From Candidatus Eiseniibacteriota bacterium (GTDB lineage: Bacteria > Orphanbacterota > Orphanbacteria > Orphanbacterales > Orphanbacteraceae), in NCBI GenBank assembly GCA_043809585.1, contig JBDROZ010000104.1, forward strand, positions 1 to 54,088: DNA of 54,088 nucleotides. Reading direction: 5' to 3'. This document shows, piece by piece, positions 2,905-47,072 of this stretch. A program made the translations under genes and the position numbers. Below the pieces are notes generated by a model that was not told the origin of the DNA, ran no database searches, and worked only from the letters and a program-made list of their open reading frames with translations. The first letter of the stretch is position 1. Every line of letters begins with the position of its first letter.

Positions 2905-4296
2905 TTACAGAATAAAACGGCTGAGGTCGACGTCGCCGGCGAGGGCGCCGAGCTTCTTCTCCACCATCGCCCGGTCGACGCGGATCGGCTCCGTCCCCGC
3001 CTCGGGGAGTTCGAAGAGCCCCTCTTCGAGGAGGGCCGAGAGGAGCGTGTGGAGCCGGCGGGCGCCGATGTTCTCGGTCCGCTCGTTGACCGTCTGGGCG
3101 AGGCGGGCGATCTCGGCGACCGCCTCGTCGTCGAAAGTGAGTTCCGCCCCCTCGGAGGCGACGAGGGCGGCGTACTGTTTGAGGAGCGAGTTTTCCGGTT
3201 CCTTCAGAATGCGCACGAAATCGTCCGCCGTCAGCGAATCGAGTTCCACCCGGATCGGGAAGCGGCCCTGCAGCTCCGGGATCAGGTCGGACGGCCTCGC
3301 GTGATGAAACGCACCGGCGCCGATGAAGAGGATGTGCTCCGTCGAGACGGTGCCGTACTTGGTCGGCACCTGAGATCCCTCGACGATGGGCAGGAGGTCG
3401 CGCTGCACGCCCTCGCGGGAGACGTCCGGACCCTGTTCCCGCTCCCTCCCGCCGGCGATCTTGTCGATCTCGTCGAGGAAGATGATCCCCCCCTGCTCGG
3501 CGCGCCGCTTCCCCTCTTCCACCGCCCGGTCCTTTTCGACCAGACCGTCCAGCTCCTGGTCGAGGAGGATGCGCCTCGCCTCGGAGACCTTCACCCGGGA
3601 ACGTTTCCGCTTCTTCGGCATCATCCGCTCGAGGGAACTCTGCAAGCCCTGGTCCATCTGGTGCATGCCGCTCGCGGCGAAAAGATCGAAGAGGGGCGCC
3701 CCCTTCTCGGGGACTTCGATGCTGACGTAGCGGTCGTCCAGCTTCCCCGACCGCAATTGCTCGAGGAGCGGCTCCTCCCGCGGCGGCGGCGGGGACTCGG
3801 CGACTCCCGCCGGGTCCACCGAGATGACATCTCTCCGCCGGTCGGCGGCGACCCGGATGTCCGGCGTCAGGAGATCGGCGATCTTCTCCTCGGACCGGTG
3901 GCGCGCTTCATCGAAGGCGGCGTCCCTGAGCTCCTTCTCCACCTCGTGGATGCCCGCTTCGACCAGGTCCCGCACCATGGACTCCACGTCCCTGCCGACG
4001 TAGCCGACCTCGGTGAACTTGGAGGCCTCCACCTTGATGAAGGGGGCGCGGGCGACCCGGGCGAGGCGCCGGGCGATCTCCGTCTTCCCGACCCCCGTCG
4101 GCCCGATCATGAGGATGTTGTTCGGGAGGATCTCCTCCCGGATCTCCTCCGGGGCTTCGCGGCGGCGCCACCGGTTGCGCAGCGCGATGGCGACCGCCTT
4201 CTTCGCCTTCGACTGGCCGATGACGAACCGGTCGAGCTCCCGGACCACCTCGGTCGGCGTGGGAAGATCGTGAAAGGGACGGGCCGGGCCGCTCAC
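2905..4296 (-). CDS. hslU: ATP-dependent protease ATPase subunit HslU
   Basis: [49 protein letters not shown] start overlapping the hslV stop. Confidence 0.95.
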
Positions 4297-26548: not shown

Positions 26549-27340
26549 TCAAGGCGAGTCCGTCAGTCTTCGCTCGACGCGCCGGAGGATCTCGGCGACG
26601 AGGGCGTCCTCGTCGGACTTGGGGGGCGCCGTCGCGGCGGTGGTGGAACATCCGCCCCGCCCTCCGTGGGTGCAGGTCCCGCAGCCCCCGCACCCCCCCT
26701 CCTTCTTCGGCGGCGTGGGGCGGAGCCCGAGGAGCTTGGCCACCTCTTCCGGAGCGAGGGGTTCGACGCGGCCGAGCATCTTGGCGGTCAGCAGGGTCTT
26801 CGCGAAACTCTCGATCATCTCCATCCGGCGGAAGGCCTGCCAGATCTCCCCGCCGAGGGCGACGGCGCCGTGGTTCTTCAGAAGGAACGCGTCATGACTC
26901 TTCGCCGTGGGGAGGGCTTTCTCCGCCAGGTCCGCCTCCCCCGGCGTGCCGTACGGCGCGAGAGGGACGGACCCGACGGTGACGAGGATTTCGGGAAGGA
27001 CGCAGTCGGCGAGGGGGACGCCGGCGACGGCGAAACCGGTGGCCGTGGGGGGGTGGGCGTGGACGACGGCGTTCACGTCCGGGCGGGCGTGATAGATGCG
27101 GAGGTGGAGGTCCGTCTCCGTCGTCGGCTCCCGGTCCCCCGACACCCGGCGTCCCGAGCCGTCGACGACGACCAGGTCCCGGGTCCCCATCCTCCCCTTG
27201 CAGAGTCCGGCCGGCGTCAGCAGGAACCGGTCCCCCCCGAGACGGACCGAGAGGTTTCCCTCGGTGGAGGCGATGAGCCCCTTCTCGTAGAGTAGACGGC
27301 CCACTTCGACCATGTCCGTCGCTCGGGGGGAGGCGTTCAC
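26549..27340 (-). CDS. BMC-associated class II aldolase (fuculose/rhamnulose-phosphate aldolase family) with C-terminal encapsulation peptide
   Basis: EGNLS, TP.G, HAHP, NHG Zn motifs; C-terminal amphipathic helix EDALVAEILRRVERRL. Confidence 0.88.
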   Translation of the reverse strand: MNASPRATDMVEVGRLLYEKGLIASTEGNLSVRLGGDRFLLTPAGLCKGRMGTRDLVVVDGSGRRVSGDREPTTETDLHLRIYHARPDVNAVVHAHPPTATGFAVAGVPLADCVLPEILVTVGSVPLAPYGTPGEADLAEKALPTAKSHDAFLLKNHGAVALGGEIWQAFRRMEMIESFAKTLLTAKMLGRVEPLAPEEVAKLLGLRPTPPKKEGGCGGCGTCTHGGRGGCSTTAATAPPKSDEDALVAEILRRVERRLTDSP

Positions 27341-27633
27341 GGCGACTTCCGGTAGGCGGCCCGGCCTTCAAGGCGGATCTCGTCGACGACGCCCACCACC
27401 ACGGAGCGGACCGGGGCCCCTTCGAACCCGATGATCTCTCCCGCCGAGCGCCCCTCTTCGTTGACGAGAACCCGGTCCCCCGGTCCGGCGGCGACCGAGT
27501 CGAGGGCGATGAAGGTCTTCCCGGCGGGCTCCCCTTCGGGGGTCACCGGGCGGATCACGAGAAGGCGCCGTCCTTCGAGAGCGCGGTGTTTCACGGTGGC
27601 GACCATATCGCCGACCACGTCGCCGAGGATCAT
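27337..27633 (-). CDS. BMC pentamer (EutN/CcmL)
   Basis: MILGDVVGDMVATVKH...IALDSVAAGPGDRVLV...VVGVVD. Start trimmed from ORF 27337..27987. Confidence 0.92.
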   Translation of the reverse strand: MILGDVVGDMVATVKHRALEGRRLLVIRPVTPEGEPAGKTFIALDSVAAGPGDRVLVNEEGRSAGEIIGFEGAPVRSVVVGVVDEIRLEGRAAYRKSP

Positions 27634-27905
27634 GGCTCCACCGTCCGGTTCACCTCGTCCACGATGCCGAGGAGGGTGACGTCGCTCACCAGTTCGGGCC
27701 CGTTCCACGCCTTCGCCGCTTCCCGTTTCTCCACGAAGCAGACCCGGTCGCCGGGGCCCGCGCTCACCGTATCGATCGCGACGAGGGGATGGTCGTACGG
27801 CTCCCCCCTCTCGTCCTCGGGCTGGACGAGGAGGAGCCTCTTGCCGGCGAGGCTCTCCACCTTCATGGTGCAGACCACCGTGCCGAGAACGCGGCCGAGC
27901 CTCAT
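27630..27905 (-). CDS. BMC pentamer (EutN/CcmL)
   Basis: MRLGRVLGTVVCTMK...VAIDTVSAGPGDRV...LGIVD. Confidence 0.92.
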   Translation of the reverse strand: MRLGRVLGTVVCTMKVESLAGKRLLLVQPEDERGEPYDHPLVAIDTVSAGPGDRVCFVEKREAAKAWNGPELVSDVTLLGIVDEVNRTVEP

Positions 27906-28468
27906 CGGAGCCACTCCTCCCGGATCTTCGCGAGGGTCTCCGCCGCCGGCGACGGGATGACGACCTCCCCGACCAGTTTCCCCCCATCCCGGGCCGCGGC
28001 CGCCCCGGCCGAGACGGCCGCCTCCACGTCGGCGAGGGGGCCGGTGATCACGAAGTAACCTTTCCCCCCCGTTCTCCGGGCGAGGTGCACACGGAGCAGG
28101 CGGACCGGGGCCGTCTTGGCGGCGGCGTCGGCCGAGAGGACCGTGCTCGCCGCGGCGGCGGTCTCCACCACGCCGATCGACTCGATCGGGCCGTCGTAGG
28201 ATGGGGGAGTCCGTCCGAGGAGGGGCAAGATCGACTCGTGGGCGGCGGGCAGGAAGACCCGGTCCACCAGCCTCTCCCCCGCCCGCTCCACGCCCTCCCG
28301 GAAAGAGGCCTCCACGGAGGCCACGTCGCCTCGGAAAAGGATCAGGTACTTCCCCGGGTCGAGGGGGCGGGACTCGAGAAGATCGACGCGGGCCTTCTTC
28401 GCCACGGCGTCGGCGACCCGGAACCCCGCGGCGATGGAGTCGAGCTCGAGGAGGGCGAGTGCTTCCAT
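27902..28468 (-). CDS. BMC trimer, tandem-domain shell protein (PduT/BMC-Ts-like)
   Basis: Two BMC domains: LELDSIAAG...ADAVAKK...PGKY and GVVET...ADAAAK...GGKG; the PduT Fe-S Cys position reads RPLDPGK (no Cys). Confidence 0.9.
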   Translation of the reverse strand: MEALALLELDSIAAGFRVADAVAKKARVDLLESRPLDPGKYLILFRGDVASVEASFREGVERAGERLVDRVFLPAAHESILPLLGRTPPSYDGPIESIGVVETAAAASTVLSADAAAKTAPVRLLRVHLARRTGGKGYFVITGPLADVEAAVSAGAAAARDGGKLVGEVVIPSPAAETLAKIREEWLR

Positions 28469-28469
28469 G

Positions 28470-29909
28470 TCAAACGATCCTGAACCGGTCGACCAGGACG
28501 CAGCGTCTCGGCCGGGTCCAGGTGCGCGCGTTCGTGAGGCCGTCGCCGGTGGGGCTCGCGATGGTGAAGCTCGTGAACCCCTCGCCGCCGAAACCGAGGC
28601 CGGCGTAGTTCGGGCCGTTCTTGACGAAGATGGAGGTGTTCATCACCCGGGCCATCTTGGAGAGCTTGTCGATGTTCCGGGAGTGCATGCTCGCCGTGTG
28701 GCGGAAGCCGTGCTCCGCCCGCCGCGCGAGATCGATTCCGGCGTCCACGTTCGGCACCCGGGCGAGGGGGAAGACGGGCATGAGCAGCTCGGTCCAGACG
28801 AAAGGGTGCTCCTGGGGGACCTCGACCAGCACCAGGCGCGGGTCGCCGTGGACGGCGACGCCGAGGGCGTCCAGGATGTACCCGGCGTTTTTGCCGACGA
28901 ATTCCTTCCGCACCACCGAGTGGGCGGCGGGGCCCCTGTCTTCGGCGAGGACGAGGGACTTCAGCTTGCCGATCATCGAGCCCTCCAGCTCGTACGCCCC
29001 CGCGCGACTCATCGCCTCCTTCAGGCGGTCCGCCACGGAGGCGACCGAGATCACCTCTTTCTCGTCGGTGCAGATGATATTGTTGTCGAGGGAGGCCCCC
29101 GCCACGAGGTCACGTCCCGCCTGATCGAAGTCGGCGGTCTCGTCTACCACCGACGGCGGATTCCCCGGCCCGGCCGCGACGACCCGCTTGCCCGACGCCA
29201 TCGCCTCCCGGACCACGGCCGGCCCGCCGGTGACGACGACGAGGCGGACATCCGGGTGCTTCATGAGGGCTTGGGCGGTTTCGATCGTCGGCTCCTCCAC
29301 GGCGGTGAAGACGAAGGGGGGCCCCCCCGCGGCGTGCATGGCGTCGTTCAGGATCGAGAGGCACCGGTTCGTGCATCCCTTCGCGCCGGGATGGGCGTTG
29401 AAGACCACCGTGTTCCCCGCGGCCACCATGCCGATGCCGTTGTTGATCACCGTTTCCGTGGGGTTCGTGGAGGGGACGATGGCGCCGATGACGCCGTAGG
29501 GTGCATAGTCGACCAGCGTCAGCCCGTGGTCGCCGGTGGTCGCCCACGGCTCGAGGATCTCCATCCCCGGCGTCTTGGTCGCGACAAGGAGGTTCTTCCT
29601 GATCTTGTCCTCGACCCGGCCCATGCCAGTCTCGGCCACCGCCTGCTCGGCGAGAGAGGGGGCCGCCTCGGCGGCCGCCCTGCGGGCCGCTTCGACCATC
29701 TTCTTCCGTGTTTCCAGGGGGACCGAGGAGAGTTCGAGGAACGCCTCGCCGGCGGCGCGAACCGCCGAGTCGAGGTCCCCGAAGACGCCCGTGCGGGTTC
29801 GGGCGGGGGACGGCGGGGGCGGGGAGAGGGTCGCGGCGGGCTCCCCTTCGAGACGGGCGATCACCCGGTCCACGATGGTGTCGATGTACCGGTCGCTCCG
29901 GTCGTCCAT
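28470..29909 (-). CDS. CoA-acylating aldehyde dehydrogenase (EutE/PduP family) with N-terminal encapsulation peptide
   Basis: ETGMGRVEDK, PSTNPTET, AGPGNPP, DNNIICTDEKE, TIASPTGDG; N-terminal IDTIVDRVIARL helix plus Pro linker. Confidence 0.92.
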   Translation of the reverse strand: MDDRSDRYIDTIVDRVIARLEGEPAATLSPPPPSPARTRTGVFGDLDSAVRAAGEAFLELSSVPLETRKKMVEAARRAAAEAAPSLAEQAVAETGMGRVEDKIRKNLLVATKTPGMEILEPWATTGDHGLTLVDYAPYGVIGAIVPSTNPTETVINNGIGMVAAGNTVVFNAHPGAKGCTNRCLSILNDAMHAAGGPPFVFTAVEEPTIETAQALMKHPDVRLVVVTGGPAVVREAMASGKRVVAAGPGNPPSVVDETADFDQAGRDLVAGASLDNNIICTDEKEVISVASVADRLKEAMSRAGAYELEGSMIGKLKSLVLAEDRGPAAHSVVRKEFVGKNAGYILDALGVAVHGDPRLVLVEVPQEHPFVWTELLMPVFPLARVPNVDAGIDLARRAEHGFRHTASMHSRNIDKLSKMARVMNTSIFVKNGPNYAGLGFGGEGFTSFTIASPTGDGLTNARTWTRPRRCVLVDRFRIV

Positions 29910-29912
29910 GGC

Positions 29913-30206
29913 CTACCCGTCCTTCCGGTAGAGCACCTCCCCTCCCGCTTCGACGGTGTCGACGATGCCGACGATCACCGCGTCGACGGGACGGTTCTCT
30001 GAGACGGGTGTGAGACGGGCGGAGCTGCCCTGGGCGCAGAGGACGATCTCCCCTTCCCCGGCGCCGACCGCGTCGACGGCGACGAAGGTCGCTCCCGTCG
30101 GCTCCCGGTCAGGACCGACGACGCGGATGACGAGGAGCTTGAGGCCGCCGAGCCTCTCCGCCTTGCGCGTGGCGACGACGGTGCCGTCCACCCTTCCGAG
30201 TACCAT
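29913..30206 (-). CDS. BMC pentamer (EutN/CcmL)
   Basis: [15 protein letters not shown]...[12 protein letters not shown]...GSSAR...[10 protein letters not shown]. Confidence 0.94.
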
Positions 30207-30230
30207 ACCCCTGGCCCCCTCTTCGACGGA

Positions 30231-30524
30231 CTACTTCGCTTCGGCCGCCGTCTTCCCGATGGGGAGCACGTCCTCGAGGTTGGCGTGGGGCCGCGGAATG
30301 ACGTGCACCGAGACCAGCTCGCCCACGCGGCTGGCCGCGGCGGCCCCCGCCTCCGTCGCGGCTCGGACCGCCGCCACGTCGCCCCGCACGATAGCGGTCA
30401 CGTACCCGCCGCCGATCCGTTCGTAGTGGACCAGTTTCACCTTCGCCGCCTTCACCATGGCGTCCGAAGCCTCCACCATGCCCACGAAACCACGGCACTC
30501 GATGAGTCCGAGCGCTTCGCCCAT
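30231..30524 (-). CDS. BMC hexamer shell protein (EutM/PduA-like BMC-H)
   Basis: [24 protein letters not shown]...GGGYV...RGDVAAV...HVIPRPH. Start trimmed from ORF 30231..31070. Confidence 0.96.
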
Positions 30525-30590
30525 GATCCTCTCCTTCCCGAAGGTCCGGCCCGGGGGCCGGCGCGTTGCTCCAAGCCGATAGCTATGCGG

Positions 30591-30620
30591 AAAATAGCAG
30601 AGCGGTTCCGACGCTGTCAA
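30591..30620 (-). promoter_or_regulatory. Putative sigma-70 promoter for the BMC operon
   Basis: TTGACA-N18-TATTTT with extended -10 TG. Confidence 0.5.
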
Positions 30621-30652
30621 CGATCCTAAACGGATGTTCGCCGGGGGCCCGG

Positions 30653-33600
30653 CTACCGGAGGAGAAGAATCTTCATGGTCTCCCGCCAGTCGCCGGCGCG
30701 GATAACCGCGAAGTAAACGCCGCTCCCCGCGTCGGTGCCCCCGTCGGTCCGGCCGTTCCAAACGACCGAGTGCCACCCGGCGGGGCGGGTCTCGTCGACG
30801 AGGATCCGGACGGTCCGCCCCCGGGCGTCGTAAAGCACGACGGTGACGGGGGCCGGGCGGGCGAGGGCGAAGGGGATCGCCGTGGTCGGATTGAACGGGT
30901 TCGGTTGGTTCCGGAAGAGTTCGTTCCGGGCCGGAAGGAAGGCGTTCAGGGTTTCGTCGACACCCGTCACGCTGTGCACGAGGAAGGTGAAGGGGGCCGC
31001 CGCCGCGTTCACTTCCCAGAGAGACACGGACGAAGAGGAGTTGGTGCCGTAGACGAAAGTGGTGTCCCACGTCTCGTCCCCCCAGATCCGGAGGTAGTAC
31101 TCCACCGTGTCGTCCAGGGAGAAGCTCGAGTCGAGAAGCCCGGAGAGGTAGGTCGAGTCTCCGACGATCGTCTCCGGCGCCAGGGGGAAGATCCCGTAAA
31201 GCGGACCCGGGAGGACCCGGAAGAAGACCTCACCCCCGGTCGCCGGCTCGGCCGTCGGCGAGCCGACCCGGAGGGCGACGGCCGTATCCGTGTCGACAGG
31301 AATGAAGGGGTGGCGCATGGGGAGCACGGGCTCCACCGACTCGGGAATGTGCCACCCGGGAAGGGCGCGCCGCCCGCCGACGAAGGCGTAGCCGAGGCCC
31401 CCCTTGTCGTCCGCCATGCCGGGGTCGTTCGGCGAACGGGCGCTCACCGAGAAGGTGACCGTGTCCCCCCGTTCGAAGGCGGCGCCGTAGGGGATCGATC
31501 CGCGCCAGTACCCGTAGCCCCCCTCGTCCCGGTCCCAGGCGAGGGGCGCCGAGTCGGAGGCGGCCCCGGCCCAGTGGACCCACGCGGTGAAGCCGCCAAG
31601 TCCGAGGGTGTCCGCCGGGGCGACGCGCGCTTCGACGAGGGCGTCCGTGTTCGCCTCCAGGGAGTCGCCGTCGGCGAAGTTCGTGTATGCCGAGACCGTC
31701 GAATCGAGGAACCCGATCTCCGTGACGAGGAGTTCCGTGGTGAAGAGGGAGCCTTGGCTCCAGTATCCCCAGGTTCCGCTCGAAAGAGCCTGCCCCCGGA
31801 CGCGCCACCAGTGGGGCGTTCCGAGGAGGAGATCGCCGTAGCCCCAGAGCGTGTCCGCCGGTGAACCGGTGGTGACGACGGAGTCGACGAGGAGCGCCCC
31901 GAATACCGAGTCGAGGGCGACTTGGAGCCGATAGGCGGTGAGCGTGTCCGAAGGATCGGGCAGAGGGACGGGCGCCCACGCGAACTCGGTGGCCGCCGCG
32001 ACATAGAGAGACCCCGGCGCCGGCCGGTGGAGCGCGGGGGGCGCCGACGGGTAGAGGGGCGTCCCCGACGCGGTCGCCGGGCCCGAGACGTTCGGGACTT
32101 CGTCGAGAGTGAAGAGCGAGTAGTGATAGGTCGTGTCCGGGAAGAGCCCGGCGTGCACGAGGGTGTCCGCCGTTCCGGGAAGGGCCGGGCGGACCTCGAG
32201 AAGGAAGCCCTCCCCGGTGTCGGCCGGCGCGGCGACCGTGCCGAACCGGAGGACCACCGACTGGAGGTCGGCGTCGGCCGGGTTGGTCCAGGTGAGCACC
32301 ACCGTCGAGTCGACGGGCGTCGCGGCGAGGCCCTGCACGAGACCGGGCGCCGTCCCGTCGAAGATATAGACCGTGTCGAGGGCGGGGATCGTATCGGCGT
32401 TGCCCGCCGAGTTCACCGCCCGGATCTCGAACAGGTAGAGCGAGTCCTCCGGAAGGGGCGCCGTCGTGAAGACGTACGCCTCGCCGGCGGAGTCGAACGT
32501 TCCGTCCGCGGCGTCCGCCGGGATCCAGAGGCCCCCCGAGACGCGGTACTCGACGCGGGCGATCGTGTTCAGGGTGATGTCGTTCCCTTCGCCGATCGTG
32601 TTCAAGTTCGGGAGGGGATTCACCCAGGTCGATCCGGCGAAGGAGGGGGTGGTGACGCTCGTCGTGTCGGGGGGAGGGACGCTCAGGATCGTCGAAGGGT
32701 AGGTGTCGAGAATGTCCGCCACGTCGTCCGTGTCCGTGTCCCGGAGTCCGATCTGCCCGTGGGTGTACGGACAGACCGCGTTCGAATCGAAGTCCCGGGT
32801 GAGGCTGTCCCGCATGATGCAAGGATCGTCGGTGAAGCAGGTCCCCCACTCGCTGTTTTGGTTCTGCTCGAGGAGATACCCGGCCTTCAGGGTGCAGCCC
32901 TTGTGCGCCCCGAAGTACTCGTCGAGGCCGTAGAAACTGTGGCCGATCTCGTGGGCGGTGACGGCATGGAGGCCGGCGATGGTCCACGGCCCGCTGTCGT
33001 AGGTCATCACCATGTAGGGGCCGCCGTAGTAGGAAAACCCGTAGAAGAGGTTGGCGAACTTCCCATTGGCGTCGTTCTTCGAATCGACGACGAAGACCGC
33101 CACCGCCCAGTCGGTGTCGTATGTCTCCCGGAGGTCGTTCAGATAGGAGCGCCCTTTGAACCAGGCGTCGCCGGTTGTGTAGCCGAGGGTGTCGAAGACT
33201 GCCTTGGTCCATATCGATTCGACCCGGGCGGTGAAGGCGTTCCGCGTGATCGGCTCGTAGGGGCACGGCACCGGATCGGGGACGTCGAACACGAAGGAGA
33301 GGTTCCCCCCCGGCGCCTGGCCGATCCACCAGGCAAGGCCCGCCTGCACCTCGTCGACGACCGAGTCGATCTCGGCCTGGGTCCAATCCTCGGTGGAGGG
33401 ATCGATGGAGCCGTCGCTTTCGGGCATCAGGATCCCGATGGCGACGGTGCCGATGAGGAACTCGCTCGTGTCGTAGAAGTTCGCGCCGGGGGGCGTTTTC
33501 GAGGGGCCGGGATCCCCCCGACCGCCGGGGGCCGCGTGCTCCATGCCCATGTCGGCGGCGCCTCCGGGATGGGGTGCCCTCTTAGCCGGGGGCGCGAAAC

Positions 33601-33925
33601 GGCGGTTCCAGGCGGCGGCGAGAAAGCGGTCGGGCCGGGAGGTCGCCTCGGGGGCCGGGACGGGGACCGGTCCGATGTCGACGGACCAGTGAGGGTGGAG
33701 GCGGGAGGTGGCGAGCCAGAATGCGTCGTCCCCCGCTACGATGGCCCCGGCGGGTGGGAAGGCCTGCAGGATTCGCCCTCCCGATCCCCTCACGGCGTTC
33801 CGGAAACCGGACCACTCCGATGCACCGCCGGCACGGACGAGCCTCTCCTCCGCCCCCGCGGCGGACACGCCGAAGAGGAGCAGAAGAAGCGAGACCGGGA
33901 AAACGAGGCGGTTCGGACGCTTCAT
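30653..33925 (-). CDS. Large secreted zinc metallopeptidase-like protein with FN3/Ig domains and C-terminal FlgD-Ig domain
   Basis: Signal peptide; [14 protein letters not shown] and downstream CIM (metzincin-like); LTWTNP FN3; [10 protein letters not shown]...WNGRTDGG...SGVYF tail. Confidence 0.8.
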
Positions 33926-33974
33926 CCAATCACCCCCCGGGGTGGTGAGCTTCCTGGAATCGTCGGGGTGGTGG

Positions 33975-34130
33975 CCGGTCCCGGATATGCCGGGAACGGG
34001 AACGGCTCCCCGCTCGTACCGTGTGCATGGGTGAACGTGTAACTCGCATCCAAGTCGATTGAGATCAGCCCACGACCCAGCAGACCACGAGTCGAGCAGG
34101 GAGCCTTTCCCGCTCCTCTGTTGTTCTGCC
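33975..34130 (-). ncRNA. Candidate sigma-54-dependent structured RNA (sRNA or 5' leader)
   Basis: Rod-like hairpin 33996-34113 whose G-U pairs form only on the minus strand, beginning ~17 nt after the predicted sigma-54 start; no known family recognised; 3' end approximate. Confidence 0.45.
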
Positions 34131-34140
34131 GGATCAAATG

Positions 34141-34156
34141 AGCAAGGGGAGTGCCA
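34141..34156 (-). promoter_or_regulatory. Sigma-54 (-24/-12) promoter
   Basis: TGGCAC-TCCCC-TTGCT, exact consensus and spacing, intergenic. Confidence 0.75.
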
Positions 34157-34454
34157 CCGCCCGGGCCTCGGGAGGCCATCACGGTACTATCGCTACAAAC
34201 CACGTGAAGTGAATCGTCGAATCGTTTGTCTGGATTACTGGTAAGAAACACGAACTCCGTCCTCCGCGATCGGTCGGAGCAGGGATCTCCGAGAGGATTG
34301 ACCCGGGCCGGCCGCGCTCCTCGCCCCGGCCGTTGGGGGAGCGTTCGGGAGACGGCCGGTTTAGTCTATCTTCGCACAGACACTTAGGGGATGGGGGAAA
34401 CTCGCCCATCCGGGGGGGAACCGGGCGAACCCGACTAAGCTCTTGACTAAGAAT

Positions 34455-34483
34455 ATTTTATATCAGGTCTTGCGCCTTGTCAA
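34455..34483 (-). promoter_or_regulatory. Near-consensus sigma-70 promoter
   Basis: TTGACA-N17-TAAAAT on the minus strand. Confidence 0.7.
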
Positions 34484-34580
34484 CCGGCCGGCCTCTCCGA
34501 TTGCAAGCGGAAATCGCGTTTTGCATCGTTCTTGACGGGTATTCCCCTCGTTGGTAGGGTGCGCGGAGGAGGATTCGGCC

Positions 34581-35189
34581 ATGATCATGCGCACCTTTCC
34601 GCGCGGGGCCCTGATGGTATCGATCGTTCTTGCCGCATGCGCTCCGCCGGCGATGTTCCTTCAGCCGGTCAAGCCGAGCATGAGCGGCGTTGTCGCCATG
34701 GAATACCTCGGCCTCCCCGAGTCGGAGGTGGAAGCGATCTTCGTGAGGCCCTACACGGGGCGGACTCTGCTCGAGACGTCGGGCACCACGTCGGCCATGC
34801 TCTACGACCTGGCGTATCTCGAAAAGAGGGCCGGCGCCAAGGCGGGGGCGAACGAAGCGCTTTACGCCATGAATCGTCGTTATGTGGAGGAGGGGATCTC
34901 CTTCAAGATCGTGGTTTGGGGCGAGAAGGCGGCGGACGTGGACCTCGCCCTGTGGCGCTTCCGCCTGCGAACGGACGACGGGCGGACTTTCGATCCGATG
35001 CGTCTCGAGCCGATCGGTGTCCCCGAGTTCGACAAGCAGTCTCTCGTGGACCGGAAGGCGACGTGGAGGAACATGGCGGACATCACCTTTCCCCTCTCCC
35101 TCGCCCCCCCCCTCTCCTTGGTGGTTCTGGAGATCGAAAAGAACGGAGAACGGGTGCAGCACCATACCTGGAAGTTCGATTGGAAGTAG
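34581..35189 (+). CDS. Hypothetical lipoprotein
   Basis: GGAGGA RBS; MIMRTFPRGALMVSIVLAAC lipobox; coding-like GC3 pattern. Confidence 0.7.
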   Translation: MIMRTFPRGALMVSIVLAACAPPAMFLQPVKPSMSGVVAMEYLGLPESEVEAIFVRPYTGRTLLETSGTTSAMLYDLAYLEKRAGAKAGANEALYAMNRRYVEEGISFKIVVWGEKAADVDLALWRFRLRTDDGRTFDPMRLEPIGVPEFDKQSLVDRKATWRNMADITFPLSLAPPLSLVVLEIEKNGERVQHHTWKFDWK

Positions 35190-35686: not shown

Positions 35687-37417
35687 ATGACCCGCAGCCG
35701 GACCCGCCGTTCTTCTTTCGTTTTCTCATGGATGTTTCTCGCCCTGCTGCTCGCCCGGGGGGCGGCGTACGGCGTGGTTCCCCTCGGGACCCCTCCCGCG
35801 TGGAGGTCGATCGACATGGATTATTCGACGGGGGGCGCGCTCCTCGATCTGAACGGGGACGGGTACCTCGACCTCGTGACCGGCAACGGAAACGACATGG
35901 CCCGTCAGCCGATCCGGGTCTACTTCAACTTGGGGGGCGAACTGGACACCGTGGCGGCTTGGTCGAGCGCCGATATCGGCTACCACTGTCATGTCGATCT
36001 CGGCGATTACGACGGGGACGGCGATCTCGATCTGGCGGTCGCCCTGCTCGGCGATCCCGGCACGCCCCAGCGGGACAAGATCTACAGGAACGAGGGGACC
36101 GGGTTCACCTCCCTCCCCGTTTGGATCTCGGGCGATCTGGACAACAGCTTCGACCTGGCCTGGGGCGATTTCGACGGCGACGGCGATCTCGATCTCGCCA
36201 CGGCGTGCGGCGAGTCGTACACGAGCGTGCCCCAGAGAAGCAAGGTCTACCGGAACGACGGCGGCGTGATCACGGAGAACTCGGTCTGGCGGACCGGGCC
36301 CGTGGACTACACGCTCGACGTGGCCTGGGGGGACGTGGACGGCGATGGCGACCTCGATCTCGCCTGCGGGAACGAGTTCGGCCCGAACCGGATCTACCGG
36401 AACCATGGGAGCGGCCTCGACTCGATCCCGTGGTGGGAATCGGCGGACACCCGGAACACGCTCCAGATCGACTTCGGCGACGTGGACGGCGACGGGTGGC
36501 TCGACCTGGCGGTGGCGAACAACGCCCAGCTCGGCGGGGTCTCCAACGCCGGCGTCTACTTCAACACGGGCGGGACCCTTTCGACGAGCGTCGGCTGGTC
36601 CTCCGGCGAGAGCCGGACCTACTTCTCCGCCGTCACCCTCGCCGACTGTGACCATGACGGCGATCTCGATCTCGCCTCCGGCGGCTGGTGGGAGCCGGTG
36701 ATGGTGTACGAGAACCTCGACGGGTCTCTCGAAACCGTCGCCTCCTTCTCCTGGAAGTTCGCCAATCCGACGAAGGGCCTCGTCGTGGAGAGCGTGGTCT
36801 GGGGCGATCTCGACAACTCGGGCTCGACGACGGTGACCGGCGAGACCATGGACGGCGACGGCGCGGCGAAGGTCTTCTACTTGGACGAGGCTCCGCTCCG
36901 TTCGATCGGCGAGATTCGCGTCGGCGGCGTCCCGGTCCCTTACGGCGATTACGCGTACGATCTCGACAAGGGGTGGATCGCCCTCGCCTCGGCGCCGCCC
37001 GCCGGCTCGGCGAACGTGGAGGTCGACTATGTCTACTCGGTGGGCCTCGATCTGGTGGTGACGAACTGGGACCCGGACGACCCGAACGTCGGATTCTCTT
37101 ACGAGGGGATCTCGACGAGCGTGGCGGGGGGATCGCCCGTCCGCTCCTCCATCCTCCTGCCGAACCGGCCGAATCCCTTCAACCCGTCGACCATCATCCC
37201 GATCCGGCTCGGCGGCCCGGCCCGCGTGACCGTCGGCGTCTACGACGTGGCCGGGCGCATCGTCCGTACCCTTCACCAGGGCCCGGCGTCGGGTGACCTC
37301 GATCTGTTGTGGGACGGTACGGACGGATCCTTCCGGCCCGTCGCCTCGGGGGTTTACTTCTCGCGGGTGGAGGTGGACGGATCGGTCGAGACGGGGCGCA
37401 TGGTCCTCGTCCGGTAG
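35687..37417 (+). CDS. Secreted FG-GAP/VCBS-repeat protein with C-terminal FlgD-Ig domain
   Basis: Signal peptide; repeated WGD.DGDGDLDLA motifs; NRPNPFNPST...WDGTDGS...SGVYF tail. Confidence 0.85.
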   Translation: MTRSRTRRSSFVFSWMFLALLLARGAAYGVVPLGTPPAWRSIDMDYSTGGALLDLNGDGYLDLVTGNGNDMARQPIRVYFNLGGELDTVAAWSSADIGYHCHVDLGDYDGDGDLDLAVALLGDPGTPQRDKIYRNEGTGFTSLPVWISGDLDNSFDLAWGDFDGDGDLDLATACGESYTSVPQRSKVYRNDGGVITENSVWRTGPVDYTLDVAWGDVDGDGDLDLACGNEFGPNRIYRNHGSGLDSIPWWESADTRNTLQIDFGDVDGDGWLDLAVANNAQLGGVSNAGVYFNTGGTLSTSVGWSSGESRTYFSAVTLADCDHDGDLDLASGGWWEPVMVYENLDGSLETVASFSWKFANPTKGLVVESVVWGDLDNSGSTTVTGETMDGDGAAKVFYLDEAPLRSIGEIRVGGVPVPYGDYAYDLDKGWIALASAPPAGSANVEVDYVYSVGLDLVVTNWDPDDPNVGFSYEGISTSVAGGSPVRSSILLPNRPNPFNPSTIIPIRLGGPARVTVGVYDVAGRIVRTLHQGPASGDLDLLWDGTDGSFRPVASGVYFSRVEVDGSVETGRMVLVR

Positions 37418-45534: not shown

Positions 45535-45550
45535 GCAATCACCGTGCCAA
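45535..45550 (-). promoter_or_regulatory. Sigma-54 (-24/-12) promoter of the oxidoreductase operon
   Basis: TTGGCAC-GGTGA-TTGC; lies directly downstream of an NtrC-family gene. Confidence 0.8.
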
Positions 45551-45683: not shown

Positions 45684-47072
45684 TCAAACCCCGCCCTTCC
45701 CGGACGGCGGGTCGGGGGGATTCTCCAGCTTCCGGTAGATCGTGCGGGCCGCGATGCCGAGCAGCCGGGCGGCGAGTTCCTTGTTTCCCTGGGTGCGCCG
45801 GAGCGTCTCGGTGATGATCTTGTGCTCCGCCTCGGCCATGGTCATCCCGAGGGGGATCCGGATCATGCTCTCCTCTCCCCTTCCCTCGTGGAGGGCGGAG
45901 GGGAGGTCTTCGATCTGGATCTGGCTCTGCCTCCCGAGAACCACCGCCCGCTCGATCACGTTTTCGAGCTCCCGCACGTTGCCCGGCCACGAGTATTTCA
46001 TGAACCGGTCGAGCACTTTCTTGGCGATCCCCTCGATCGACTTTCCGTTTCTCTGGTTGTAGATACACAGAAAATGTTCCGCGAGAAGGGGGATGTCCTC
46101 GGGCCGGTCCCGAAGGGGCGGGATGTGGATCGTGATGACGTTCAGCCGGTAGTAAAGATCTTTCCGGAAGCGCTTCTCCCGAATCCCCTCCTCCAGGTTC
46201 ATGTTGGTCGCGGCGATGAGCCGAACGTCGACCCGGAGCGTCTGGGTGCCCCCCACCCGCTCGAACTCCCCCTCCTGCAGCACCCGGAGCAGTTTGACCT
46301 GGGTGGCGGGGGACATTTCGCCGATCTCGTCGAGGAAAAGGGTGCCTCCGTCGGCGAGCTCGAACCGTCCCTTCCTCTGTCCCACGGCCCCGGTGAACGC
46401 TCCCCTCTCGTGGCCGAAGAGCTCCGCCTCGAGGAGGGTGTCGGGAATGGCGGCGCAGTTCACCTTGATGAAGGGGTAGTCCTTCCGATGGCTGGCGTGG
46501 TGGACGATGTTGGCGATCACTTCCTTGCCCGTGCCGCTCTCCCCCTCGATGAGCACCGACGCGCTCGACGGCGCGACCTGCTCCGCAACCTCGAGGGTCT
46601 TCTTCATGGAGAGAGAGACGCCGATCGGGCGCGGAACCTTCTCCATCGTTCGGAGACGCTCCCGGAGCTCCCGGTTCTCGCTGGCGAGGGCCTGCCGCTC
46701 GAGGGCCTTCTCGATCGACTTCAGGATCAGGTGCTTCTTGATCGGCTTCTGTATGAAGTCGTACGCGCCGTCCTTCATCGCACGCACCGCGTCGTCCACG
46801 GTGCCGTAGCCGGTGATCATGAGAACTTCCGTCTCGGGGGAGGCGATCTTGAGCATCTTGAGAAGGTCGAGGCCGTCGATGTCGGGCAGCTTGAGATCGC
46901 AAAGGGCGACGCGGAAGCGGGCCGTTCGGACCCGGGCCATCGCCTCCTTGCCGTCGGCGGCGGTTTCGACTTCGAAACCCTCGCGGGTGAGAAGCTTCTG
47001 GAAGGACTGGCGGATTTCCGCTTCGTCGTCGATGACGAGGACCGATTCTCTGGGGGTGTCGGCCAAGGTCAC
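45684..47072 (-). CDS. Sigma-54-dependent response regulator (NtrC/AtoC family)
   Basis: REC (IDDE, DLKLP, ITG, KP), [22 protein letters not shown], Fis HTH; GTG start. Confidence 0.95.

Follow-up and report, generated by a model that had tools for sequence, protein, structure and literature searches.

A truncated, bubble-less relative of 6S RNA behind a predicted sigma-54 promoter in three bacterial phyla

6S RNA is defined by its open bubble, a mimic of a melted promoter that traps the housekeeping RNA polymerase; in Escherichia coli its gene heads an operon, the ssrS-ygfA arrangement. The two 6S RNAs of Bacillus subtilis, 6S-1 and 6S-2, both keep the full bubble architecture. A separate set of small RNAs (sRNAs), comprising Qrr1-5, GlmY, CrcZ and Pxr, is sigma-54 dependent, and regulatory RNAs of the EutX/Rli55 type are non-coding RNAs at bacterial microcompartment (BMC) loci. 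Here we analyze an RNA encoded on the minus strand of a 54,088-nt stretch of DNA (the window; contig JBDROZ010000104.1 of assembly GCA_043809585.1, a Candidatus Eiseniibacteriota bacterium), where an initial annotation had proposed a sigma-54 promoter followed by a rod-like hairpin, either an sRNA or a leader. The explanation that we favor, with moderate confidence and from sequence comparison, is a gene for an sRNA of ~125-150 nt that would be transcribed by sigma-54 polymerase and would represent a bubble-less, rod-like paralogue of 6S RNA, with a function that we infer from this kinship.

The presence of a second 6S paralogue in one genome has been described for 6S-1 and 6S-2 of B. subtilis; these paralogues bind the housekeeping polymerase, and 6S-2 templates short transcripts, as stated in parts of PMC3923129, PMC4793215 and PMC10578484. 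A truncated 6S-1 reduced to the bubble and two short arms is still functional, as part of PMC8876501 reports. The RNA of the window shares with the B. subtilis pair the occurrence of two 6S-type RNAs per genome, whose roles are presumably divided, but its truncation is the opposite of that of the shortened 6S-1: the bubble was kept there, whereas here there are arms without a bubble.

A covarying RNA and its upstream promoter motif

The minus strand of the window carries a strand-specific, covarying, structured non-coding RNA, whose parts are the following.

34141..34156, minus: sigma-54 promoter with -24 element TGGCAC and -12 element TTGCT, sequence TGGCACTCCCCTTGCT (TGGCAC-TCCCC-TTGCT)
34117..34130, minus: predicted transcript start at ~34130, taken from promoter geometry, and single-stranded 5' tail GGCAGAACAACAGA, unpaired in the fold
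33993..34116, minus: rod hairpin of 124 nt, the body of the truncated 6S-like RNA, delimited by folding and covariance model and beginning 14 nt past the predicted start
34096..34105, minus: 5' arm GGCUCCCUGC of the 6S-type closing-stem block, aligning to the ends of 6S RNAs and to the Rfam 6S consensus
34004..34013, minus: 3' partner GCGGGGAGCC of the closing-stem block, with the same alignments
34086-34089 and 34020-34023, minus: CGUG/CACG helix, again aligning to the ends of 6S RNAs and to the Rfam 6S consensus
34061..34078, minus: core GGGUCGUGGGCUGAUCUC, an 18-mer that model alignments place on the CuGAgCC block, which borders the 6S central bubble on its 5' side
34046..34060, minus: short apical stem-loop, standing in place of the 6S central bubble and terminal stem; the folds give small loops only
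33979..33995, minus: small UCCCGG/CCGGGA hairpin without a U-tract, not a terminator by pattern scan

The 121-nt hairpin folds to -66.7 kcal/mol (z = -7.1), with an equally good fold in 0 of 200 shuffles; the opposite strand reaches -58.7 kcal/mol (z = -6.5). Positions 34113-34086 and 34023-33996, named in the initial annotation as the two arms, pair as it said, and the small UCCCGG/CCGGGA hairpin that it placed after the rod is present at 33995-33979. Its choice of the minus strand agrees with a covariance model of the RNA (R1), which scores 151 bits at the window locus on that strand; antisense matches in relatives reach only 28-30 bits, in 2 genomes. A 109-aa open reading frame (ORF) overlaps the rod (33922..34251, minus); it matched no Pfam family and was rejected as a gene, because its similarity between genomes follows from conservation of the RNA itself.

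The 186-nt stretch is present once in the 4.24-Mb assembly of the window's genome. A DNA search of 41 genomes recovered it in 8/8 genomes of the same family, along with a weak match in the single genome of the same class. R1 gave one strong match (82-154 bits) in each of the ten genomes of the window's (Eisenbacteria-like) phylum, and one weak extra match of 23.5 bits. Applied to 151 genomes sampled across bacteria, it matched two genomes of other phyla (G068 and G092); within the phyla of these two genomes, hereafter the second and the third phylum, matches were found in 94/151 and 28/31 genomes, respectively. Stricter filters, at which weak matches are lost, were applied whenever more than 40 genomes were searched, so that absences mean 'not found' and not 'absent'; the second-phylum tallies of RNA, BMC domains, 6S RNA and rpoN each include an unpublished genome (G164), and related genomes are not independent samples. 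Copy number is nearly always one per genome across the three phyla, as it is in the window's genome, which is not the pattern of the dispersed mobile repeat that the initial annotation had named as a possible refutation. One second-phylum locus (L110; G283:C82:2582-2714 and 3108-3237) has two tandem copies upstream of BMC genes, each with its own CGGCAC-N5-TTGC promoter.

The 18-mer core is invariant in 15/15 unique sequences of the window's phylum; the apical tip differs between lineages. An exact scan of public contigs for the 18-mer returned 15 genome and 21 metagenome stretches, and R1 confirmed 13 of these 36. Five unique sequences were gained in this way, each with its promoter at the spacing seen before. 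The remaining 23 exact matches were rejected as copies of the RNA: they gave no model match, and their flanks were dissimilar by eye.

A MAFFT alignment of ten sequences showed the -24/-12 motif at a fixed distance from the hairpin, an invariant 18-mer and compensatory changes in the outer helices (RNAalifold: 40 pairs, 9 with double changes). When 60 sequences from the three phyla were aligned under guidance of the model, changes on both sides were seen in 26/40 pairs, and 89.9% of cells were paired versus 35-53% with the partners slid by 1-3 columns; none of 500 shuffles attained any of five measures. The CCC/GGG and U-G pairs were invariant in 60/60 of these sequences, and another G-U pair was kept in 58/60. 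This search for homologues with a test of covariation, which had been suggested together with the initial annotation, thus found an RNA conserved in three phyla with compensatory change in most of its pairs. An earlier alignment of 67 rows (A5), which included one antisense row and one second copy, had given 25/40 compensatory pairs. Because both alignments lean towards the model, 34 sequences were also aligned with MAFFT alone; RNAalifold then gave the lower rod, with 23 pairs, 10 of them compensatory, and did not predict the apical part, which was inconsistently aligned.

The TGGCAC-N5-TTGCT reported in the initial annotation is present exactly at 34156-34141 (minus). TGGCAC-N5-TTGCW matched nowhere else in the 54-kb window, and 0/100 shuffles contained a match. 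The whole genome contains TGGCAY-N5-TTGC 22 times, compared with ~13.6 expected from base composition, so that the motif alone is weak evidence, and conservation is what counts. Within 150 nt upstream, on the RNA strand, GG[CT]A[CT]-N5-NTGC was found in 66/68 unique members of the family (15/15, 30/32 and 21/21 in the window's, second and third phylum); on the opposite strand of the same segments it was found in 0/68, and in control segments of the same loci in 11/2438. The strict form TGGCAY-N5-TTGC occurred in 15/15, 14/32 and 1/21 members and in 1/2438 controls, the third phylum having TGGCAC-N5-(A/C)TGC. The spacer and flanks of the promoter vary freely, which is the pattern expected of a promoter recognized by a protein.

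The window's genome encodes rpoN and contains ~25 strong matches to the sigma-54 activator domain (enhancer-binding proteins). Because rpoN is found in 146/151 genomes of the second phylum, comparing its presence there with that of the RNA was uninformative. The conserved -24 GG and -12 GC, their correct spacing and the rpoN gene in the genome are the features of sigma-54-dependent sRNA genes, a class to which this gene would on these grounds belong. Transcription from sigma-54 promoters is expected to start ~12 nt past the C of the -12 element, here near 34130. Reading by eye showed a recurrent single-stranded motif immediately 5' of the rod in all three phyla, as CAGA(N)ACAAC here and GACAAC(U)GAAUA elsewhere.

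The initial annotation had also suggested that an imperfect palindrome at ~34227-34250 might be an activator site; this suggestion was not borne out, the palindrome not being conserved when 15 homologous upstream regions were aligned. At 45549 (minus), the window has a second TGGCAC-N5-TTGC motif, just downstream of a sigma-54 activator gene whose AAA+ domain (46125-46622, minus; 250 bits) is 12 kb from the RNA. The product of this gene is a possible candidate for the activator of the RNA's promoter. A tblastn search with its AAA+ domain found no adjacent activator gene in any locus examined.

Relationship to 6S RNA

Reciprocal matches of covariance models show, at the level of sequence and predicted structure, that the RNA is a truncated relative of 6S RNA, related to its two ends by descent or by deep similarity, with the bubble lost. 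A model built from this RNA family alone, using its three phyla (R2), was run on the same 151 sampled genomes, where it recovered the ten of the window's phylum, G068, G092 and an extra locus in G001. Besides these, it matched four genomes of other phyla at 23-27 bits, among 141 genomes outside the window's phylum. All four loci are 6S RNAs matched by the Rfam 6S model RF00013, with scores of 101, 66.4, 53.6 and 39.7 bits, the first three above its gathering threshold of 46.4 bits. The R2 alignments with 6S RNA have in common a 5'-terminal GUUCCCUGC-N-CGUGAU and a 3'-terminal CACACGG-N-GCGGGGAAC-UUUU, and the invariant core of the family aligns on the 6S block UGAGCC.

RF00013 in turn finds this RNA. 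Among the 31 genomes of the third phylum, its matches are confined to 8 genomes, score 28-33 bits and fall exactly on this RNA; four sub-threshold matches in the second phylum (34 bits) likewise coincide with it. The alignments of RF00013 in relatives keep model positions 1-49 and ~145-187; 88-95 central positions are deleted and 7-15 nt are left. In the RF00013 structure line, these deletions correspond to the central bubble together with the terminal stem. Thus, the sequence blocks of the 6S closing stem and bubble edge are present, as seen both in model alignments and in comparison within the same genome, and the large central bubble that separates the closing and terminal stems of 6S RNA is absent, leaving small apical loops only.

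The initial annotation had recognized no riboswitch, 6S RNA or signal recognition particle (SRP) RNA. This stands insofar as no Rfam family is found at the locus: the Rfam scan that it proposed, extended to 12 homologous loci, gave only transfer RNA (tRNA), transfer-messenger RNA and noise. It does not stand for 6S resemblance, which the reciprocal model matches reveal.

The RNA coexists with canonical 6S RNA in two phyla. A canonical 6S RNA lies elsewhere in 9/10 genomes of the window's phylum (6 above the cut-off), including the window's own genome, where it is on contig C44, and in 128/151 genomes of the second phylum (118 above the cut-off). Five genomes in which the canonical and the mini RNA were set side by side showed the shared blocks in the same order. 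The possibility that the RNA or its upstream neighbor is the genome's own 6S or SRP RNA was rejected, both of these being located elsewhere. In none of the 31 third-phylum genomes did RF00013 find a canonical 6S RNA above the cut-off; either the 6S RNA of this phylum has diverged too far to be recognized by Rfam, or the phylum has the short form alone. The truncated RNA might be the only 6S RNA there because a canonical one was undetected in the 31 genomes.

The likeness to 6S RNA extends from the UCCCUGC...GCGGGGA closing stem with its U-G pair, through the CGUG/CACG helix, to a CuGAgCC-like block with a GGuUCa-like partner, the order of these elements being the same, and includes the rod-like shape, the single copy and the reciprocal model matches; the position at the head of an operon resembles that of ssrS before ygfA. 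The differences are in length (~125-140 nt versus ~180), in the sigma-54 promoter and in the coexistence with canonical 6S RNA.

A further 6S-like RNA of ~150 nt was seen at the extra locus in G001 (L148:407-559; G001:C70:41406-41558). It scores 31 bits with R2 and has no RF00013 match at E <= 0.1; TGGCAC-N5-TTGT lies upstream, and it has an ACAACAACAG 5' tail and a U-tract.

Downstream genes and competing explanations

The genes that follow the RNA in the window are these.

30653..33925, minus: secreted protein of 1090 aa with a signal peptide, an HEIGH motif and a type-9-secretion/FlgD-Ig C-terminal domain; its start codon, at 33925, is 70 nt after the rod
26549..30650, minus: BMC operon encoding BMC-H, EutN, an aldehyde dehydrogenase, a tandem BMC protein, EutN and a class II aldolase, assigned by Pfam matches and synteny

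The 1090-aa protein has no match to a Pfam peptidase domain. Its gene is probably co-transcribed with the RNA, given the short gap between them.

The action of a sigma-54-transcribed, rod-like 6S paralogue can be pictured as follows. An enhancer-binding activator would turn the promoter on, and the RNA would work through a protein partner and not as a ligand sensor. The partner would most likely be RNA polymerase, which is the first candidate because of the kinship to 6S RNA. At this locus, the transcript would continue into the gene of the HExxH protein and the BMC operon, and processing of its 5' part would yield the RNA. Such read-through is probable because no terminator follows the rod in the window's genome; a crude scan found no hairpin with a U-run between rod and start codon, the only such site lying inside the ORF. 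Where lineages have a U-tract, the rod may also terminate or gate transcription.

Several observations weigh against this explanation. RF00013 has no match on the window's copy (166 nt) even at E <= 10, so that by Rfam criteria the RNA is not a member of the 6S family but a derivative, and all RF00013 matches in relatives (28-34 bits) are under the gathering score. A classical 6S-like mode of action is doubtful, because the central bubble, by which 6S RNA mimics an open promoter, has been lost. In the other two phyla, folds of single sequences have weak z-scores (-0.5 to -1.5), and the E-values of R1 and R2 are rough owing to a shortened calibration. The gap of 60-85 nt between rod and start codon in the window's phylum suits a leader as well as an sRNA. 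Moreover, the sequences of the helices vary unusually little, possibly on account of some partner other than polymerase.

The RNA might instead be purely a cis-acting leader or attenuator of the HExxH-protein gene and BMC operon, in which the rod, joined by a U-tract in some species, would stop transcription from the sigma-54 promoter unless a ligand or an antiterminator protein opened it. The gene order would suit such a role. An orthologue of the 1090-aa gene begins 60-85 nt after the rod, with the BMC operon behind it, in 7/7 relatives of the window's phylum that have long flanks; BMC-H/BMC-H/EutN/aldehyde dehydrogenase genes lie directly downstream on the same strand in 19/32 members from the second phylum; and the same BMC genes lie at +940 to +1270, with one ORF between, in 19/21 from the third, the other two having flanks that are too short. 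A U-rich tract directly follows the rod in 21/68 members, a hairpin with a U-run occurs at the rod or within 140 nt of it in 35/68 (by a crude fold-based scan), and the fold of the window's leader includes anti-Shine-Dalgarno pairing. However, the obligatory position upstream of one gene class that marks a BMC riboswitch or leader was not found. One family, f147, has the RNA in 29/32 genomes and BMC domains in 0/32, so the RNA is not merely a BMC leader; it lies there amid housekeeping genes, between the iPGM gene and the genes of SppA, RNase R and a PilZ protein, and at several loci a hairpin and U-run of its own could be seen by eye after the rod. Two other families have BMC genes and largely lack detected RNA (f144: BMC 7/7, RNA 0/7; f151: BMC 10/10, RNA 1/10), and in two genomes of f150 a long distance separates the RNA from the BMC genes, or the two are found on separate contigs. 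Third-phylum loci, at least 12 of 21 by eye, have a terminator-like hairpin after the RNA and then TTGACA-N17-TAGACT, a separate sigma-70-type promoter before the next gene. The conserved positions lie in helices and not, as in riboswitches, in junction pockets, and a leader would leave the kinship to 6S RNA unaccounted for. We regard an exclusive leader role as unlikely. The alternative of sRNA or leader in the initial annotation was nonetheless a fair one, the window having no terminator and other lineages having their own terminator or a separate promoter. EutX and Rli55 are comparable in being non-coding RNAs at a BMC gene cluster, but here no riboswitch or ANTAR-type element was matched and the BMC association is not obligatory.

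A trans-acting sRNA of the Qrr/GlmY kind, using the 5' tail or the apical loop as its base-pairing seed and the rod as a stabilizing terminator hairpin, would account for the sigma-54 promoter, a promoter type on which several sRNAs depend, for the CAGA-ACAAC/GACAAC-GAAUA motif in the unpaired 5' tail of all three phyla, and for the stand-alone gene in f147 and the third phylum. But the motif rests on a by-eye reading without a control, the strongest conservation is within the paired rod (the invariant 18-mer), where a simple terminator would not usually have it, there is no match to an Rfam sRNA family, and the kinship to 6S RNA points to protein binding; this proposal, too, seems improbable. 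The comparison with Qrr, GlmY, CrcZ and Pxr made in the initial annotation holds for the -24/-12 promoter before a small non-coding RNA and fails for Rfam membership; the multi-copy sibling set and the adjacent activator gene are also missing, the former from the window's genome. An element acting as DNA, whether a protein-binding palindrome, a recombination site or a mobile repeat, could explain why the plus strand of the inverted repeat also folds well (z = -6.5). It is scarcely credible beside the single copy in the genome, the strand-specific U-G (60/60) and G-U (58/60) pairs, antisense scores of 28-30 bits versus 150, the promoter that stands on one side in 66/68 members and on the opposite strand in 0/68, and the kinship to 6S RNA. 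A more specific proposal, which we consider rather unlikely, is a 6S analogue programmed by sigma-54: sigma-54 polymerase would make the rod once an enhancer-binding activator fires, and the rod would dock in the polymerase, feed back on sigma competition or the sigma-54 regulon and so time the BMC operon. Sigma-54 holoenzyme recognizes a fork junction rather than an open bubble, and it might be the docking partner. If this were true, the RNA would be the first of the 6S type to be tied to an alternative sigma factor.

For the sigma-54-transcribed 6S paralogue that we favor, the wider meaning lies in a 6S relative that appears to have lost the bubble and gained a sigma-54 promoter and has been kept as a single copy, under purifying selection, in more than 130 genomes of three phyla. 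Retention of a bubble-less relative would imply that the closing stem does something in its own right, or that an RNA of different shape is able to address polymerase. The little-studied BMC loci of these uncultured lineages gain a candidate regulatory RNA and a candidate sigma-54 input, and a covariance model of the family would improve the annotation of the three phyla.

The family is missing from Rfam, no family of which matches the window's copy or the loci of its phylum. Literature searches that paired Eisenbacteria with sigma-54, or 6S RNA with Gemmatimonadetes, found nothing, and searches on BMC with sigma-54 or RNA motifs, on RNA-motif surveys and on 6S RNA with sigma-54 or paralogues found no description of this RNA. 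By term search, the main text of the BMC catalogue PMC8217296 has no word beginning with 'sigma' or 'RNA', and the main texts of two preprints (10.64898/2026.10.21.760802 and 10.64898/2026.09.15.751765) contain none of the terms microcompartment, sigma-54, Gemmatimonad and Eisenbacteria.

Neighboring features of the locus

A near-consensus sigma-70-type promoter, TTGACA-17-TAAAAT, with 11/12 matches, lies at 34483-34455 (minus), ~300 nt upstream of the sigma-54 promoter, and is conserved in 15/15 homologous loci. It is followed by a conserved non-coding stretch with the blocks GACAACGGCUUAGG, CCUAAGU and GUCUCCCGA, after which comes, at 34268-34240 (minus), a hairpin that resembles a terminator and has a U-rich tail. 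Judged from this arrangement, 34240-34483 (minus) is probably a second small RNA gene, of ~200 nt ('RNA-1'). RNA-1 is single-copy, was seen only in the window's phylum among the loci examined, and has no Rfam match; RNAalifold gave 0 pairs for its consensus structure on a MAFFT alignment. In 15/15 loci, the sigma-70 -10 box and the sigma-54 -24 box are 290-320 bp apart, and most of the intervening sequence is variable.

Divergently from these promoters, at 34551-35189 (plus), runs a 212-aa ORF with a lipoprotein-like N-terminus, 43-72% identical in 6 relatives and lacking a Pfam or PDB relative; on its strand, a promoter-like TTGAC-N17-TAnGGT site is present in the intergenic region. Farther on, at 35687-37417 (plus), is a gene for a 576-aa protein with FG-GAP repeats and a FlgD-Ig/type-9-secretion-type C-terminal domain like that of the 1090-aa protein. 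A conserved arrangement of two tRNA genes is found upstream of the locus in most relatives (L003, L004, L006-L008, L010, L011, L058, L066 and L069). In the most divergent lineage (L011, L069), a tRNA gene stands directly before the sigma-70 promoter, replacing the lipoprotein gene.

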